NCBI GenBank assembly: GCA_965116565.1
Contig: OZ220699.1
Location: 2,442,858 to 2,506,857, forward strand
Length of the DNA stretch: 64,000 nucleotides
DNA from: Dehalococcoidia bacterium
GTDB lineage: Bacteria; Chloroflexota; Dehalococcoidia; Lucifugimonadales; UBA3495
Reading direction: 5' to 3'
In this document: in pieces, positions 18,976 through 28,575 of the stretch
Numbering within the stretch: position 1 is the stretch's first letter
Layout of the letters: every line of letters begins with the position of its first letter
The notes under the pieces: model-generated
What the model saw: only the letters and a program-made list of their open reading frames with translations
Databases searched by the model: none
Told to the model about the DNA's origin: nothing
Translations under genes and position numbers: made by a program

Positions 18976-19617
18976 ATGCGCTTGGCCAGCATCGAACAGG
19001 GTCTCTCTGACCTGAGAATCGGCAAGTTCCTCATCGTGGTCGATGACGAAGATCGCGAAAATGAGGGCGATCTGGTCATGCCGGCTGAACATGTTACCGC
19101 CGAGTCCGTCAATTTCATGGTCACCCACGCCCGCGGGCAACTGTGCATGCCCATGACGGCCGAGCGTCTGGACGAATTGGATATCCCGCTTTTGCCCAGC
19201 CGCAATTCCGATTCTGATCTGCCCACCGCCTTCACCATGCCGGTGGACTACGCCATCGATACCTCCACCGGCATCTCCGCCGGGGACCGGGCTGCGACCA
19301 TCCGCGCCCTCATCGATCCGGCATCCCGCCCCCAGGACTTCATTCAGCCCGGCCACCTGTTTCCGTTGCGCTACCACGCGGGTGGCGTCCTCGTCCGCCC
19401 CGGCCACACTGAAGCCATCATCGACCTGTGCCGCCTGGCCGGCCTGTACCCCGCCGGCGTGGTCTGCGAGATCATGAAAGAAGACGGCAGCATGGCACGC
19501 CTCCCGGATCTGATCCCCATGGCGAGGGATTTCTCGCTCAATATCCTCTCCATCGCGGACCTCATCGCTTACCGTCGAATACACGACCCCGCCGCAGCGG
19601 ACTCGCCGGCCAATTGA
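18976..19617 (+). CDS. ribB: 3,4-dihydroxy-2-butanone-4-phosphate synthase (stand-alone)
   Basis: FLIVVDDEDRENEGDLVMPAE...FMVTHARG...STGISAGDRA...PGHLFPL...RPGHTEA. No GTP cyclohydrolase II domain. Confidence 0.88.
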   Translation: MRLASIEQGLSDLRIGKFLIVVDDEDRENEGDLVMPAEHVTAESVNFMVTHARGQLCMPMTAERLDELDIPLLPSRNSDSDLPTAFTMPVDYAIDTSTGISAGDRAATIRALIDPASRPQDFIQPGHLFPLRYHAGGVLVRPGHTEAIIDLCRLAGLYPAGVVCEIMKEDGSMARLPDLIPMARDFSLNILSIADLIAYRRIHDPAAADSPAN

Positions 19618-19711: not shown

Positions 19712-20944
19712 ATGCCCCTGTGTAGCCTCGAAGAGGCGCTGGAAGACCTTTCTTCTGGAAAGCTCATCATCGTCGTCGATGACGAAAATCGGGAAAATGA
19801 AGGCGACCTGTTCCTTTTCGCAGAGCACGCCACCCCTGCCGCCGTCAACTTCATGGTCACCCATGCCCGCGGTCTGGTCTGCGTGCCAATGTCGGGAGAG
19901 CGCCTGGAGGAACTCCGCATCCCCCTCCTCCGCAGCCGCAACTCCAATTCCTCCCAACCCACGGCTTTCACAACCTCCGTGGACTACAAGCCCGGCACGT
20001 CAACCGGCGTCTCCGCGTACGACCGCAGCGCGACCATCCGGGCCTTGATCGATCCCGATTCCCAACCCGGGGATTTCATACACCCGGGCCATCTGTTCCC
20101 GTTGCGCGCCAACCCCGGGGGCGTTCTTCGACGGCCCGGCCACACCGAGGCCATGATTGACCTGTGCCGGAGGGCCGGCGCGTACCCGGCCGGGGTCATC
20201 TGCGAGATCATGAACCCGGACGGAACCATGTCCCGTCTGCCCGAGCTTGAAAAATTCGCCGCCAGGCACGACCTCAAGATATTCAGCATCGCCCAACTGA
20301 TCGCCCACCGGCGCATGAACGAATCCCTGGTAACCCGCGTGGCCGAGGCCAACCTGCCCACCCAATACGGTATCGCGCGCATCATCGGCTACAACAGCAC
20401 GATCGACAGCGGTGAACACGCCGCTCTGGTGGTCGGTGAGTGGCAGCCTGGCGATGAAGTTCTGGTCAGGGTCCATAGCGAATGTCTCACCGGCGACGCG
20501 TTCGGAAGCCTGAAGTGCGACTGCGGTGAACAGCTGGATATGGCGATCCGCATGATGTTCGAAGACGGTTGCGGCGCCCTTATCTACCTCCGTCAGGAGG
20601 GCCGTGGCATCGGCCTCCATAACAAGATCCGGGCCTACGCCCTGCAGGACCACGGCTTGGACACCATCGAGGCGAACGTTGCTCTGGGGTTCCAGCCCGA
20701 CGAACGCAAATACGACCTGGCCGTCCAGATCATGCACGATTTGAACATCAACCGCGCCCGCCTGGTGACTAACAATCCCCACAAGATGGCTGGCATCAGT
20801 GGATTGGGCGTCGAGGTCACCGACCGCGTCAGCCTCACCGTGCCCACCAACGAGCTCAACGAAGGCTACATGCGGACCAAGCGCGAGCACATGGGGCACC
20901 TGATCTCGCCCCTCCAGGCCAGCCCGCCTGACGCAACCGACTAG
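19712..20944 (+). CDS. ribBA: Bifunctional DHBP synthase / GTP cyclohydrolase II
   Basis: N-terminal DHBP synthase domain paralogous to the preceding gene. C-terminal GCH II domain with VRVHSECLTGDAFGSLKCDCGEQL and YLRQEGRGIGL. Confidence 0.92.
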   Translation: MPLCSLEEALEDLSSGKLIIVVDDENRENEGDLFLFAEHATPAAVNFMVTHARGLVCVPMSGERLEELRIPLLRSRNSNSSQPTAFTTSVDYKPGTSTGVSAYDRSATIRALIDPDSQPGDFIHPGHLFPLRANPGGVLRRPGHTEAMIDLCRRAGAYPAGVICEIMNPDGTMSRLPELEKFAARHDLKIFSIAQLIAHRRMNESLVTRVAEANLPTQYGIARIIGYNSTIDSGEHAALVVGEWQPGDEVLVRVHSECLTGDAFGSLKCDCGEQLDMAIRMMFEDGCGALIYLRQEGRGIGLHNKIRAYALQDHGLDTIEANVALGFQPDERKYDLAVQIMHDLNINRARLVTNNPHKMAGISGLGVEVTDRVSLTVPTNELNEGYMRTKREHMGHLISPLQASPPDATD

Positions 20945-21067: not shown

Positions 21068-22172
21068 TTACTCGCCACCCAGCTTGCTCACCAAGTACGC
21101 CTCGATGAAACCGTCGATCCCGCCGGCCAGCACCGCGTCCGTATTCCCTGATTGGTAATCCGTCCGGTGGTCCTTCACCGACTTGTACGGATGCAAAACG
21201 TAGCTGCGTATCTGGTTGCCCCATTCGGCCGACACCCGCTCGCCCCGTATGCTCGAAAGTTCCTGCTCTCGTTCCGCCTCCCTCAACGCCAGCAGCTTCG
21301 CCCGCAGGATCCGCATCGCGTAGTCCCGGTTCTGGTGCTGCGATCGCTCGGTCTGACACGAAACGACGATGCCCGAGGGCGTGTGCGTCAACCGAACCGC
21401 CGACGCCACCTTTTGCACGTTCTGTCCGCCGGGCCCGCTGGAGCGGAAAAAGTCCATCTTGAGGTCTTCCGGCCTGATCTCCACCTCCGCGTCGTCATCC
21501 ACCACCGCGGGCAGGACCTCCACCCGCGCGAACGATGTTTGTCGTCGCCGCGCCGGGTCGAACGGCGACATCCTCACCAGCCGGTGTACCCCCACCTCCG
21601 CGTTCAGGAAACCGAAAGCGTGTTGCCCGCCTATCTCCATCGTGCTCGTGCGCAGGCCGGCTTCGTCGCCGTACGCCGTGTCCAGCACCTGCACCGGTCG
21701 GCCGTCGGTGGAAGCCCAGCCGGCGTACATCCCTGTCAGCATCTCCACCCAGTCGTGTGAGTCAGTGCCCCCGGCGCCTGAATGTATCGTGAGGATGGCC
21801 GGTCGGTCGTCGTAGGGCCCCGACAGCGTCAACTCCATCTCGGCTCGCGCCAGGCGGTTGCCCACGTCGTCGGCCTCGGCGGTCAGCTCATCTTCCAGGC
21901 TGTCGTCGTCGTTCTCGATGGCAAGCTCGGTCAGTTCCGCCAGGTCGGCAACTTGCGATTGCAGCCCCCTCCACAACTCCACCGACTGCTGGAGCCGGCC
22001 CAGTTCCTGCATCTTGCGTTGCGCCGATCCAGGGTCATCCCAGAATCCGGCAGCGGCAGCCTCAGTCTCCAGTTCGGAAATGGATTTCTCCCTGCCGGCG
22101 AGGTCAAAGCCGCTCCACGACCGCGTCCAACTTGACGGCCATTTCGGCAAGTCGCTGGCTGAGTTCATCCAT
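21068..22172 (-). CDS. prfB: Peptide chain release factor 2, requires programmed +1 frameshift (22172..22107 joined to 22105..21068)
   Basis: Frame 0 reads MDELSQRLAEMAVKLDAVVERL then CTT TGA C. The +1 frame continues DLAGREKSISELE... to the RF2 body with the SPF and GGQ motifs. The track ORF (21068-22168) is the +1 frame only. Confidence 0.9.
22103..22109 (-). promoter_or_regulatory. RF2 autoregulatory +1 frameshift site CUU UGA C
   Basis: Sense sequence GTGGAGCGG CTT TGA C. The SD-like GGAG lies 3 nt upstream of CTT, the same layout as the E. coli prfB shift site. Confidence 0.85.
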
Positions 22173-22353
22173 TTCTACCACTCCACTGTGTCGCAGCGGG
22201 TTTGCGCTGCTGAATTGCGGGAACAATTATACATCCACGCCCGGCTGACGAATCCTGCCCGGCATCGCCCGAACCGCCCGGTCAAACACGATGGGCTATA
22301 ATGATTTCGTGCTTATTTGTAACCCCTAATCGTTCGCAGGCAGGTAGCTTTCC

Positions 22354-24150: not shown

Positions 24151-24453
24151 ATGGCCATATTCAGAACCGACGGCCAGAGGCCCAAAGCAACGGTTACGAC
24201 GCACCAGGCTACTCCGGAAGAGCTCGCTCATTGGCGAGACTCCGTTGCCCGCTCCGAACGCCTCCGGGCAATGCGCCCCGAGCTGATCAAGAAATACCCC
24301 GATAAGTGGGTTGCGCTGACTGAGAACTGGGTGCTTGTGGTTGCAGACTCAGTGGAAGAGCGGAGAAAAAAGATCGAGGAACTTGGCGAACATCCGGGCT
24401 TCGCTGCGCGGGAGTTTTTGAACACCAAGCCACGCCCTCGAATAATTCTATGA
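24151..24453 (+). CDS. Small DUF5678-like protein (100 aa)
   Basis: GAGGAG RBS. The core YPDKWVALTENWVLVVADSVEE resembles the DUF5678 family as I recall it. ATGA overlap with the next gene. Confidence 0.5.
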   Translation: MAIFRTDGQRPKATVTTHQATPEELAHWRDSVARSERLRAMRPELIKKYPDKWVALTENWVLVVADSVEERRKKIEELGEHPGFAAREFLNTKPRPRIIL

Positions 24454-24863
24454 TTACCGGCTATTTCGCTCCGGATGGCAGCCCTCGCATGATGGTGCGG
24501 GTGCATCTACCGAGGCTTGGCATACTCGGGGGCGTTGATTTTCTGATTGACACCGGAACCGATACTACTGTCCTTCATCCAACTGACGCGGATGACTTGC
24601 ACTGCCCCTTTGACGAACTGTCCAACCCGTCAGTCTCCACCAGCGTGGGCGGGCCACACACTTACTACGCCGAAAGCGCAGTAGTATCGCTTTACGATGG
24701 CGAAACCCGCCATGACCTCCGTGTGGACATCCACATCGGCAAGCCACACCCCGTGACCAACGGCCTGGACTCACTGCTCGGGCGCGACGTGCTGAACGAG
24801 TTGGATATGCAATATGCTCCACGGCGCGGCCAGTTGGTCTTCTCGCTGGATGGAGAACCGTAG
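24450..24863 (+). CDS. Retropepsin-like (clan AA) aspartic protease, 137 aa
   Basis: Catalytic FLIDTGTDTTVL (D-T-G) and a late SLLGRDVL motif. Single-domain size implies a homodimer. Confidence 0.7.
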   Translation: MITGYFAPDGSPRMMVRVHLPRLGILGGVDFLIDTGTDTTVLHPTDADDLHCPFDELSNPSVSTSVGGPHTYYAESAVVSLYDGETRHDLRVDIHIGKPHPVTNGLDSLLGRDVLNELDMQYAPRRGQLVFSLDGEP

Positions 24864-24880: not shown

Positions 24881-25744
24881 CTACTGCGCCAACTCCCTCA
24901 GCGCCCCCACGTAGTCCCCGCCTCCGCCGTATCCCTTGCGGAACGTGATGACCCCATGCGAATCCATGGCGATCATCGACGATTGGCTGGTGATCCTCAG
25001 GTCCGCCAGCATCGAACCTAGCGGCTGCGTGGAGATCATGTCGGAGTAACCGTTTTCTACGACGTACTGTTCCAGGCGGCTCGCGCTTTCGCTGAACGAC
25101 ACCAGGTAGAAATCGACCTTATCTGCGTTTTCGGTAACAACTGGGGCAAGCGACCGTAACTCGGCGCGGCAGGTTGGTCACCAGGTCGCGAAGTACATCA
25201 TGAACGCCGGTTTACCCGCAGCGGTCAGGTCCGCCAGCGCCACCGGTGTCCCGTCCGTCCGCTCCATCGTGAACGCCGGCGGAATCTCCCCAACGTTCGT
25301 CCCCTCCGGCGCGGCCGGCACGGATTCGGTGGGAGGTGGAGCCATCGTAGCCGCTTCAGTTGGAGGCGCCGCGGCCGCCGTGGGTGCGGCTGTTGGTGCC
25401 GAGGGTGCCTCGGTAGCCACTGCTGGTGGTGGCGGCGCCTGCGATTGGCCCCCGGCCGGCGCTGTCGTGTTGGTCGGCGCCGGCGCGGCAACGGCAGCGG
25501 TCGTCTCAGTGGGAACCGCCGGCGCTTCTGTCGCCGAGGCCGCCGGCGGAGCCGATTCCGTCGCCGACTCCATCATGGCCGTCGGAGCGTCGGTGGGCAA
25601 CGCGACCTCGGTTGCCTGCGACGCTGCGGGTTGCTCCGGTGCCGCCGGCGGAGGTGGCGGAGACGGTTCTGACCCGCACGCCGATAGAAACGCGACCATT
25701 CCGGCCGCGATTGTGACAGCGAATATTCCGTGAATCTTTCTCAT
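24881..25744 (-). CDS. TlpA/thioredoxin-like lipoprotein, predicted selenoprotein (Sec codon TGA at 25178-25180)
   Basis: Track fragments 25178-25744 and 24881-25102 are in one frame across a TGA. Read-through gives FMMYFATW-U-PTC-RAELRSLAPVV...FYLVSF...ITFRKGYG, a thioredoxin fold. Lipobox AFLSAC, and a long Ala/Pro/Thr linker. Confidence 0.8.
25150..25167 (-). promoter_or_regulatory. Candidate bacterial SECIS hairpin for the 24881-25744 gene
   Basis: It starts 10 nt after the TGA: GCGCCG-AGUUA-CGG(U)CGC. A hairpin of the same geometry follows the paralog's TGA. Confidence 0.65.
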
Positions 25745-25787
25745 TTCGTCAGGCCTTCGGCGTCAACGACGCCGCACACTATCCTCA

Positions 25788-26393
25788 TCAACTTGGCAGT
25801 TGCAAGTCTTGCTGTCTCTGGTCTTTTTGCCGTTGAATTTCAACCTCCGGCGGTATGGCCATCGGGTCGGCGGTCAGCGCTCCGAAGTACGGCTCCCAGG
25901 TCGCCGCGCTGCCCATCACCTGCCGGTGGTAGATCATCCCGTTCCCGTTCACCGCCATCATCGCCATTTGCCGGGTGACCTGCAGGTCCGCCAGCATTGT
26001 GCCGACGGGTTCGGCGGGTATTACGTCGGTGTAACCATGCTCCTCAATATATTCGGCAATCTCGTCGACTGACTCGTTGTACGAAACAACGTAGAAGTCA
26101 AGGCCGGGGTATTTCGATGCGATGGGATCCAGCGTCTGCAACTCAGCGCGGCACTCGGGTCACCAGGTTGCGAACCAGAAAAGGTGCGCCGCCTGGTTGT
26201 CGTCCACTATGTCCTTGAGCGATACCTCGGTGCCGTCCTCCAGCGTCATCGCAAACGGCGGCGACGTGTTCCCAACCTCTATGCCCGCAACCCCGACGGC
26301 CGGGCCGTCCGAGGCCGGCGCGCAGGCCAGCGCCACCAGCAACATCAGCGTTGCCAACGCTCCGGCCCACACATGTCGCGGCATTGTCGCCAT
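25788..26393 (-). CDS. TlpA/thioredoxin-like lipoprotein, predicted selenoprotein (Sec codon TGA at 26160-26162)
   Basis: Track fragments 26160-26393 and 25788-26141 are in one frame across a TGA. Read-through gives HLFWFATW-U-PEC-RAELQTLDPIASKYPGLDFYVVSY...MIYHRQ. Lipobox LLVALAC. Confidence 0.8.
26132..26149 (-). promoter_or_regulatory. Candidate bacterial SECIS hairpin for the 25788-26393 gene
   Basis: It starts 10 nt after the TGA: GCGCUG-AGUUG-CAG(A)CGC. Relative to the paralog, the inner stem C-G pair is replaced by U-A. Confidence 0.65.
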
Positions 26394-26523: not shown

Positions 26524-28575
26524 ATGCCTAACCGCCTTGCCAACGAGACCAGTCCCTACCTTCTCCAGCACGCCGAAAATCCGGTGGACTGGTATCCCTG
26601 GGGCGAAGAGGCCCTCAACCGCGCCCGCGACGAGGACCGTCCCATCCTCCTCAGCATCGGCTACTCCGCCTGCCACTGGTGCCACGTCATGGAACGCGAG
26701 TCCTTCGAGAACGATGACATCGCTGCCGTCATGAACCAGCATTTCGTCAACATCAAGGTTGACCGCGAGGAGCGCCCCGACCTCGACGCCGTGTACATGG
26801 AAGCCATCCAGATGCTCACCGGCAGCGGCGGCTGGCCCATGACCGTGTTCTTGACCCCTGAAGGCCGGCCCTTCTACGGCGGCACCTACTTCCCCCCCGA
26901 GGATCGCCAGGGCATGCCCGGTTTCCCTCGCCTGTTGGAGGCCGCCAGCCAGGCTTACCAGACCAACAAGAGCGAAATCGAGCGTGTAACCCGCCAGCTT
27001 TCCGAGCAGATGGGCCGCTCCGGCCAGATGCCGCGCGGCTTCACGCCCCTCACCACCGAGGTGATGCACAACGCCTACTCCCAGCTTGCCACCCAGTTTG
27101 ACCACCTCAACGGCGGCTTCGGCAACGCTCCCAAGTTCCCCCAGCCCATGACCCCGGAGTTCCTGCTGCGCTACTACCGCCACGGATTCAACATCCGCGC
27201 GCTGGAAATGGTCGAGCACACGTTGCAGAAAATGGCCTACGGCGGCATGTACGACCAGGTCGGCGGCGGTTTCCACCGCTACTCCACCGATGCCTACTGG
27301 CTCGTCCCCCACTTCGAAAAGATGCTTTATGACAACGCCCTCCTGGCCCGCCTCTATCTCCACGCGTGGCAGATCACCCGCAACCCCCTGTACCGGCGTA
27401 TCACCGAGGAAACCCTGGATTACGTCCTGCGCGAGATGACCGACTCCGCCGGCGGCTTCTACTCAGCCCAGGACGCCGACAGCGAGGGCGTGGAGGGCAA
27501 GTTCTTCGTGTGGACGCCCGACGAGTTGCGGCCCCTGCTTGGCGACGACGCCGACCTCATCATGGCCTACTACGGTGTCTCCGAGCGAGGTAACTTCGAA
27601 GGTTCCAACATCCTCAACGTCGCCCGCCCGCCGGACGAATTCGCCGATCAACGCGGCGTTTCCGAGGAAACGTTGCTCGGCGCCATCGCCCGCGCTCGCG
27701 CTACCCTCCTCGATGTCCGCGAGCAGCGTATCCACCCGCTCCTCGACGACAAGGTGCTCACGTCGTGGAACGGCCTCATGCTCCGCGCTTTCGCCGAGGC
27801 CGGCGCCGCCCTCGATCGCGCTGACTACCTGGACGCCGCCAGGGCCAACGCGGCGTTCCTCCTCGAAAACATGCGCGACGCCAGCGGCCGCGTCCTACGA
27901 ACCTGGCGCAACGGCGAGGCCAAGCTCCTCGGTTACCTCGAAGACTACTCCTGCCTCGCCGACGGCCTGACCGCCCTCCACGAAGCGACCCTCGAACCCC
28001 GCTGGCTTCAGGAAGCCGTTGCCACTGCGGACGGCATGATCAACCTTTTCTGGGACGACGTCGTTGGGGGCTTCTACGACACCGGCAATGACCACGAACA
28101 GCTTGTCATCCGCCCCCGCGACGTGTTCGACAACGCGCAGCCCTGCGGCGGCTCCGTCGCCACCGACGTGCTCCTCCGGCTCGGCGTAATCACCGGCAAC
28201 GACGACTACTCATCCAAGGGCGCAACCCCTCTCCGTGCGTTGCAACAGCTTTTGGGCCGCGCGCCCAGCGCCACCGGGCACTGGCTGGGCGCCCTGGACT
28301 TCTACGTCTCCCTGCCTCGCGAAATCGTCATCGTCGGCCCCGCCGGCGCTGATTCCACCCGCTCAATGCTCCGCGAGGTCAACTCACGCTTCATGCCCAA
28401 CAAGGTCGCCGTGGGCATGGCCGATCCCGCCAACCCGCCGTTGAAAGACTCCCCGCTGCTGGAACAACGCGCCATGCAGGACGGCCAACCCACCGCCTAC
28501 GTCTGCGAAAACTACGCCTGCCAACTCCCAGTGACCGACGCAGCCGCCCTCGCCGCCCAACTCGACCGCCAGTAA
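26524..28575 (+). CDS. Thioredoxin-domain protein of the YyaL/DUF255 (SSP411-like) family
   Basis: [29 protein letters not shown]...[22 protein letters not shown], followed by an alpha/alpha-toroid-like C-terminal region. Confidence 0.88.

Follow-up and report, generated by a model that had tools for sequence, protein, structure and literature searches.

Putative selenocysteine insertion hairpins in a tandem pair of CcmG/TlpA-like redoxin genes of Dehalococcoidia

Two tandem redoxin genes with in-frame UGA codons

The stretch of DNA analysed here, which we call the window, comprises 64,000 nucleotides (nt) of contig OZ220699.1 from the Dehalococcoidia bacterium assembly GCA_965116565.1. It contains two redoxin genes, designated gene 2 and gene 1, which lie in tandem on the minus strand 43 nt apart and are probably co-transcribed. 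Each gene is interrupted by an in-frame UGA codon, and each UGA is followed by a small hairpin that an earlier note on this DNA had proposed to be a selenocysteine insertion sequence (SECIS). With selenocysteine (Sec) at the two UGAs, the pair is predicted to encode two full-length exported selenoenzymes, maintained in a marine and sponge-associated clade of Dehalococcoidia. The features of the locus are as follows.

26393..25788, minus strand: gene 2, a CcmG/DsbE/TlpA-like redoxin of 201 codons including the UGA, plus a TGA stop (translation, Pfam).
26162-26160, minus strand: in-frame TGA of gene 2, predicted to encode Sec in place of the first Cys of CxxC (TGA kept in every homologue found).
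26159-26150, minus strand: spacer of gene 2, 10 nt from UGA to hairpin (length invariant in 55 sequences).
26149-26132, minus strand: candidate SECIS hairpin of gene 2, GCGCUG-AGUUG-CAG-A-CGC (-5.2 kcal/mol, RNAalifold, covariation, frozen synonymous sites).
25744..24881, minus strand: gene 1, a paralogous redoxin of 287 codons including the UGA, plus a TAG stop (translation, Pfam).
25180-25178, minus strand: in-frame TGA of gene 1; predicted Sec codon (translation, homologue comparison).
25177-25168, minus strand: spacer of gene 1, 10 nt from UGA to hairpin (sequence, homologue comparison).
25167-25150, minus strand: candidate SECIS hairpin of gene 1, GCGCCG-AGUUA-CGG-U-CGC (-6.5 kcal/mol, comparative evidence as for gene 2).

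When translated with Cys put in for the stop, both proteins match the Pfam families AhpC-TSA (PF00578) and Redoxin (PF08534) above gathering cut-offs, and they are 42% identical to one another over the redoxin domain. Both begin with an N-terminal signal or lipoprotein-like sequence with a final Cys: the translation of gene 2 gives an N-terminal signal sequence and a W-U-P-E-C active site, and that of gene 1 gives a lipobox (LSAC), a Pro/Ala/Thr-rich linker and a W-U-P-T-C active site. The linker of gene 1 is a low-complexity stretch of ~120 residues (residues about 25-145; window about 25300-25670, minus strand) that joins the lipobox Cys to the redoxin domain. The linker is absent from gene 2, and the upstream in-frame lengths of gene 1 orthologues suggest that they have long N-terminal regions too. 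The top relatives of both proteins in NCBIfam and the Protein Data Bank (PDB) are DsbE/CcmG, ResA and TlpA. Scores for individual families fall below the family cut-offs, at 44 and 30 bits for TIGR00385 (DsbE; cut-off 123) and 32-34 bits for NF011941 (cut-off 359); judged from the sequences, the resemblance to DsbE/CcmG is one of superfamily and active site only.

The read-through translations are ...FWFATW*PECRAELQTL... for gene 2 and ...MYFATW*PTCRAELRSL... for gene 1, where the asterisk is the UGA. We found that this in-frame UGA aligns with a catalytic Cys: W-TGA-P-x-C corresponds to W-TGT-P-T-C in two homologues, P0114 and P0124, and to WCPTC in E. coli DsbE. The alignment with the DsbE active site thus places the TGA at the nucleophilic first Cys of the CxxC redox motif.

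A reassigned genetic code was considered as an explanation for the interrupted frames and is ruled out, since TGA ends 9 of the 29 confident genes of the window and the prfB gene has a UGA frameshift site. The latter gene, which encodes release factor 2 (RF2; identified by Pfam PCRF/RF-1), lies at 21068-22226 on the minus strand and carries a canonical CTT TGA C programmed +1 frameshift site at 22109-22103; a short upstream open reading frame (ORF; 22226..22104) ends at the TGA of this site, and the main ORF goes on in the +1 frame. UGA is therefore a genuine stop here, and the two in-frame UGAs need local recoding. An in-frame TGA scan combined with codon-position G+C, run over the window for further selenoprotein genes, returned adjacent-gene artefacts only.

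Conservation, covariation and constraint of the hairpins

The earlier note had described the same mini-hairpin exactly 10 nt after both TGAs, and this description proved correct in every detail by sequence, pattern search and folding. Each 18-mer alone folds, as claimed, into a 3+3 base pair (bp) stem with a single bulged base on the 3' arm and a 5-nt AGUUR loop (-5.2 and -6.5 kcal/mol for genes 2 and 1, respectively), and, in its inner stem, gene 2 has U-A as the middle pair where gene 1 has C-G. The window contains only two exact matches to the pattern shared by the hairpins, and these are the two sites themselves; a search of the window for further copies with up to 3 mismatches gave chance-level matches only.

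To avoid selecting on the hairpin, we seeded a search of the GTDB species genomes with the protein sequence that starts after it. This search yielded 25 loci, all in metagenome-assembled genomes (MAGs) of Dehalococcoidia/Chloroflexota, several of them from sponge bins. A metagenome scan added only 3 loci, with the same pattern, and viral contigs scanned for the motif gave no matches. The tandem pair is kept in 24 of the 25 GTDB loci. Together, the window and 27 Dehalococcoidia/Chloroflexota records supplied 55 TGA-carrying gene copies for comparison, and in every one of them the TGA occupies the same codon and the reading frames are intact on either side of it. The earlier note had proposed examining orthologues for a hairpin at the same offset, and we found one 10 nt downstream of the TGA in 55/55 copies, with the consensus GCGCYGAGUURCRGWCGC. 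The spacer is 10 nt long in each of the 55 sequences, with free variation at its third codon positions. Folding, also proposed in that note, placed the full hairpin in the minimum-energy structure of 41 of the 55 sequences when 40-50 nt from the UGA were included as context, with a median pair probability of 0.91-0.95; for gene 1 of the window, the hairpin is in the minimum-energy structure at every context length tried.

The aligned sequences support the same structure. RNAalifold independently predicts the same six pairs, and 99.3% of cells pair in the named structure, versus 12-48% when the partners are slid by 1-3 columns. The difference in the inner stem had been read as a compensatory change from C-G to U-A, a reading that the homologues bear out: at this pair (alignment columns 33-41), 27 of the distinct sequences have C-G and 21 have U-A, there is no wobble, mismatched or unpaired intermediate, and Fitch parsimony on a tree built without the hairpin requires at least three independent switches. 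Paralogues within one genome often differ at this pair. The covariation couples a silent Ala third position (GCC/GCU) to the choice between Arg and Gln (CGG/CAG) three codons on, and no protein-level reason explains this coupling.

Two natural variants bear on the bulge. The hairpin of locus L016, GGGCUGAGUUGCAGUCCA, forms a perfect 6-bp stem without a bulge (-8.8 kcal/mol). This variant is ambiguous: it can be read as a second compensatory pair (C-G to G-C) or, from the folding, equally well as loss of the bulge. In gene 1 of locus L012, a G-to-U change (Ala to Ser) creates a U that pairs with the formerly bulged A, such that the bulge moves and the 6-bp stem is kept. These variants indicate that the bulge is common but not obligatory. 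The bulged base that the earlier note counted as part of the element is thus present in both window hairpins, but it is not strictly required.

Selection on these nucleotides beyond the protein code was assessed by counting parsimony steps at third codon positions on a protein-sequence tree that excluded the hairpin. The hairpin codons, +4 to +9, show 1, 3, 0, 8, 0 and 1 steps (mean 2.2), of which the 8 fall at the R position of the loop and the 3 at the covarying site. Codons that flank the hairpin in these genes, those of invariant residues included, have a mean of 12.0 steps (range 5-17), so that synonymous change is about five times lower inside the hairpin than in its flanks; third positions just outside the 18-mer evolve freely, within that same range. 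The A, G, U and U of the loop are invariant (zero steps), even though GAA and CTN codons would be synonymous. In the 51 copies from the genome loci and the window, the Glu of the hairpin is always GAG and the Leu always TTG or TTA, whereas in the confident window genes GAG makes up 62% of Glu codons, TTR 11% of Leu codons and TTA 0%. The fixed AGUU codons, maintained despite the rare use of TTR for Leu, indicate that the loop is held at the nucleotide level against codon preference.

A profile search provided a control in the form of the two nearest full-length homologues, P0114 and P0124, which are 35-37% identical to gene 2 and carry TGT at the Sec position within the same peptide, WCPTCRAEL. 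Their codons in this region, CGA GCG/GCC GAA TTG ACG CGA, form no hairpin and supply no loop G. From these Cys forms, we conclude that the peptide alone does not generate the structure.

In public protein sets, the listed relatives (P0001-P0161) are, apart from P0114 and P0124, fragments annotated as 'hypothetical protein' only. The N-terminal fragments are mostly 78 residues long and end ...FATW, and the C-terminal fragments are 92-117 residues long and start at an internal TTG or ATG; gene 2 itself is represented only by split fragments of 78 and 117 residues. These fragment-only entries indicate that the gene pair is systematically mis-called in public gene sets. One entry, P0050 (152 residues, from a 4.1-Mb contig), was examined as a possible read-through or Cys form and rejected, as it is a frame-disrupted variant without the TGA. 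Its sequence, ...FISPPGPECRAELQTLD..., fits a 2-nt deletion by which the TGA is lost and the upstream frame shifted, and may stem from an error in the sequencing of a long-read MAG or mark a true pseudogene.

Proposed selenocysteine insertion and the alternatives

Together, the conservation in 55/55 copies, the covariation, the synonymous constraint and the fit to the bacterial SECIS consensus (see below) support the earlier note's reading, and we consider it very probable that the two hairpins are bacterial SECIS elements in tandem CcmG/TlpA-like UxxC selenoprotein genes. By analogy with the E. coli paradigm, they would bind SelB and direct the actual insertion of Sec. The 18-nt hairpin would be bound at its invariant A-G-U-U loop by SelB, the elongation factor that carries Sec-tRNA(Sec) and GTP, through the C-terminal winged-helix domains of the factor; with the UGA in the A site, the fixed 10-nt spacer would bring the hairpin to the point where mRNA enters the ribosome. 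SelB would then deliver Sec in competition with RF2, yielding the U-x-x-C active site. In such a scheme, the RNA signal would occupy the codons of a conserved peptide that predates it, C-R-A-E-L-(R/Q)-(T/S)-L, and this overlay would explain both the frozen codon choice and the coupling of the silent Ala position to the Arg/Gln choice.

Several observations weigh against the SECIS interpretation. Compared with dinucleotide shuffles, the 18-mers give z values of only -0.8 to -1.4, and contexts of 61-91 nt give z about 0 (all -1.4 to +1). The gene 2 hairpin is missing from the 61-nt minimum-energy fold, though it appears in the centroid. From the window alone, the hairpins are indistinguishable from chance in their G+C-rich context, and the case rests on the comparative data. 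Within those data, the covariation comes mainly from one pair and about three events, and the Cys-form control is effectively one lineage, P0114 and P0124 being closely related. The bulge, dispensable in L016 and located on the 3' arm unlike that of E. coli fdhF, suggests that the details of recognition may differ from the paradigm. In Rfam, the whole window had no match at gathering thresholds, and the region around the genes had only chance matches at E <= 10, none of them on the hairpins. Finally, ARAGORN found no tRNA in the 64-kb window, and hence no tRNA-Sec, and selA, selB, selC and selD were not found in the window by annotation of nearby genes and the tRNA scan.

The alternative that survives best, although we judge it unlikely, is that each hairpin forms just the apical portion of a SECIS that is larger or different and whose function needs a conserved lower helix or further downstream structure. 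A lower helix is present in the natural SECIS elements of E. coli (PMC13188914), and the earlier note had suggested that the stems here extend further. When folded in 40-50 nt of context, many sequences do lengthen the stem at its base by one to three GCC/GGC pairs, and in some, bases farther downstream pair with the UGA region. RNAalifold also predicts a 4-bp helix that includes the UGA. In this helix, UCGC/GUGA (alignment columns 5-8 with 15-18; window 26173-26170 with 26163-26160 in gene 2, and the equivalent positions in gene 1), the UGA is paired to the upstream Phe-Ala codons; the variation is one-sided, C/U only, with no compensatory change. However, the extra GCC/GGC pairs are variable, are absent in several sequences (for example, L018 and gene 1 of L016) and show no covariation, and the suggested extension was not borne out: the alignment, RNAalifold and the context folds revealed these facultative pairs and no conserved lower helix or stem extension. 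Moreover, the third positions that flank the 18-mer are free to change (5-17 steps), and the upper stem-loop of the E. coli element is reported to be sufficient by itself (PMC11431864).

Considerably less probable is a conserved RNA element with some other role, such as pausing, mRNA stability or SelB-independent near-cognate read-through, at a UGA that does not encode Sec. This possibility draws on the missing match to any curated Rfam SECIS family and on the missing sel genes described above, as well as on the fact that the part played by SelB and Sec is drawn from analogy. It is opposed by the position of the UGA, which falls exactly at the redox-active Cys of CxxC, the classic site of Sec/Cys exchange, and by the loop, which has G-U at positions 2-3 and a spacing such as the SECIS consensus expects. 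In addition, the lineage is documented as selenoprotein-rich, and UxxC redoxin, TlpA-like and Prx-like proteins count as established families of selenoproteins.

Hardly credible, and already contradicted by the comparative data, is the view that the hairpins have no RNA function and are a by-product of the CRAEL peptide combined with codon bias or with gene conversion between the two paralogues, the TGAs being sequencing errors or lesions of pseudogenes: C-R-A-E is indeed conserved in Cys-containing relatives, including E. coli DsbE, and the single-sequence folding statistics are not significant, but the Cys forms encode the same peptide with other codons and no hairpin, TTR for Leu runs against the codon bias of the window genes, synonymous sites are frozen only inside the 18-mer, the silent Ala position covaries perfectly with the second position of the Arg/Gln codon, the frequent difference between paralogues at that pair speaks against homogenisation, and the TGA is present, with frames intact on both sides, in all 55 copies.

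Read as SECIS elements, the hairpins leave the understanding of the mechanism unchanged and constitute a clear but ordinary example of it in a selenium-heavy group. They nonetheless offer an unusually clean natural case of a SECIS overlaid on coding sequence, in which an 18-nt signal shares the codons of a peptide, CRAEL, that is older than the signal, and a very short candidate SECIS for work with the SelB of an uncultured lineage; the comparison also corrects a systematic annotation error, the gene pair having been present in public sets as split fragments only. More tentatively, the hairpins could represent a compact, lineage-specific class of SECIS recognized by the SelB of Dehalococcoidia, defined by an 18-nt hairpin that suffices by itself, an invariant AGUU loop, the shortest allowed spacing, a 3'-side or dispensable bulge and no lower helix. 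We regard the existence of such a class as possible but doubtful. If it does exist, its members would be among the smallest natural SECIS footprints, with six codons constrained, and of interest for selenoprotein engineering; if, in addition, the other 40-odd selenoprotein genes share the hairpin, the recognition code of the lineage would be defined.

Among the neighbouring genes, the one divergent from gene 2 (26524-28575, plus strand) encodes a 683-residue DUF255/Thioredox_DsbH thioredoxin-domain protein with a CHWCH motif, and three thioredoxin-fold genes thus lie side by side. Two small ORFs that overlap by 4 nt (24151-24453 and 24450-24863, both plus strand) are convergent with gene 1. 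One encodes a 100-residue protein with no Pfam match and the other a 137-residue protein with a weak aspartyl-protease (PF13650) match, and the G+C content of the two ORFs seems to be below that of the surrounding sequence. Elsewhere in the window, two adjacent plus-strand genes (18976-19617 and 19712-20944) both contain a DHBP synthase (RibB) domain, which stands alone in one and is fused to GTP cyclohydrolase II (RibBA) in the other.

Comparison with known systems

The bacterial SECIS consensus of bSECISearch (Zhang and Gladyshev 2005), as summarised in PMC13188914, comprises a loop of 3-9 nt, an upper stem of 4-16 bp, a UGA-to-loop distance of 16-37 nt, a minimum free energy of -7.5 kcal/mol or lower, and a G at loop position 1 or 2, after which G or U is usual. 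Set against this consensus, the hairpins here closely follow an in-frame UGA within the coding region, fall within the limits for the loop (5 nt) and stem (6 bp, with a 1-nt bulge), have a G at loop position 2 followed by U, and are maintained as structures in evolution, as judged by covariation and constraint beyond coding. Their UGA-to-loop distance of 16 nt (the 10-nt spacer plus the 6-nt 5' arm) is at the extreme lower limit. The core 18-mers alone, at -5.2 and -6.5 kcal/mol, miss the energy threshold, and 53 of the 55 sequences reach it with 40-50 nt of context, a comparison in which the length of the stretch to which the threshold applies is unspecified; the extra pairs that supply the energy in context are facultative and not conserved. 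In these loops, A and R flank G-U-U, and they are unable to pair in the manner of N1-N2, which closes the loop in the commonest pattern.

The minimal SECIS of E. coli fdhF lies 11 nt from the UGA, and its bulged U on the 5' arm and its loop G-U both contact SelB. The hairpins described here resemble this element in size (18 versus 17 nt), in offset (10 versus 11 nt), in their location within a coding region, in a stem with one bulged base, and in a small loop that begins A-G and contains G-U. Folded by the same method, the fdhF 17-mer gives -4.2 kcal/mol, and the stability of the hairpins here is similar or higher (-5.2 to -6.7 kcal/mol). They differ from fdhF in the bulge, which is on the 3' arm (A or U) and absent in L016, rather than on the 5' arm; in the loop, which is AGUUR rather than AGGUCU/GGUC; in having no conserved lower helix; and in the host gene, which is a redoxin rather than formate dehydrogenase. 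The element described here is, moreover, known from sequence alone. The 17-nt upper stem-loop of fdhF, GGUUGCAGGUCUGCACC, is reported to be the minimal functional SECIS and to be sufficient for function (PMC11431864; sequence from PMC10945757).

At the protein level, the top relative of solved structure is E. coli DsbE/CcmG (PDB 2g0f, 2b1k), in which WATWCPTCRAEHQYL aligns with FATW(U)PECRAELQTL. DsbE is an extracytoplasmic thiol-disulfide oxidoreductase, as is predicted for the proteins here. The similarity is weak (E about 2e-6), DsbE has Cys and not Sec, and the likeness is one of sequence.

Established selenoprotein families include the UxxC redoxin, Prx-like and TlpA-like proteins (PMC1088965; PMC13188914). 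Compared with the UxxC thioredoxin-fold selenoproteins (Prx-like PF00578, Redoxin PF08534, TlpA cd02966), both proteins match PF00578 and PF08534, Sec is predicted at the first position of UxxC, and Cys homologues exist. The proteins differ from these families in forming a lineage-restricted Dehalococcoidia subfamily, in occurring as a tandem pair of exported proteins, and in an active site that is closest to that of CcmG/DsbE (WxPxCRAE). The lineage that carries them, Dehalococcoidia, is reported to be among the most selenoprotein-rich of bacteria, with 46-49 selenoproteins (PMC13326102).

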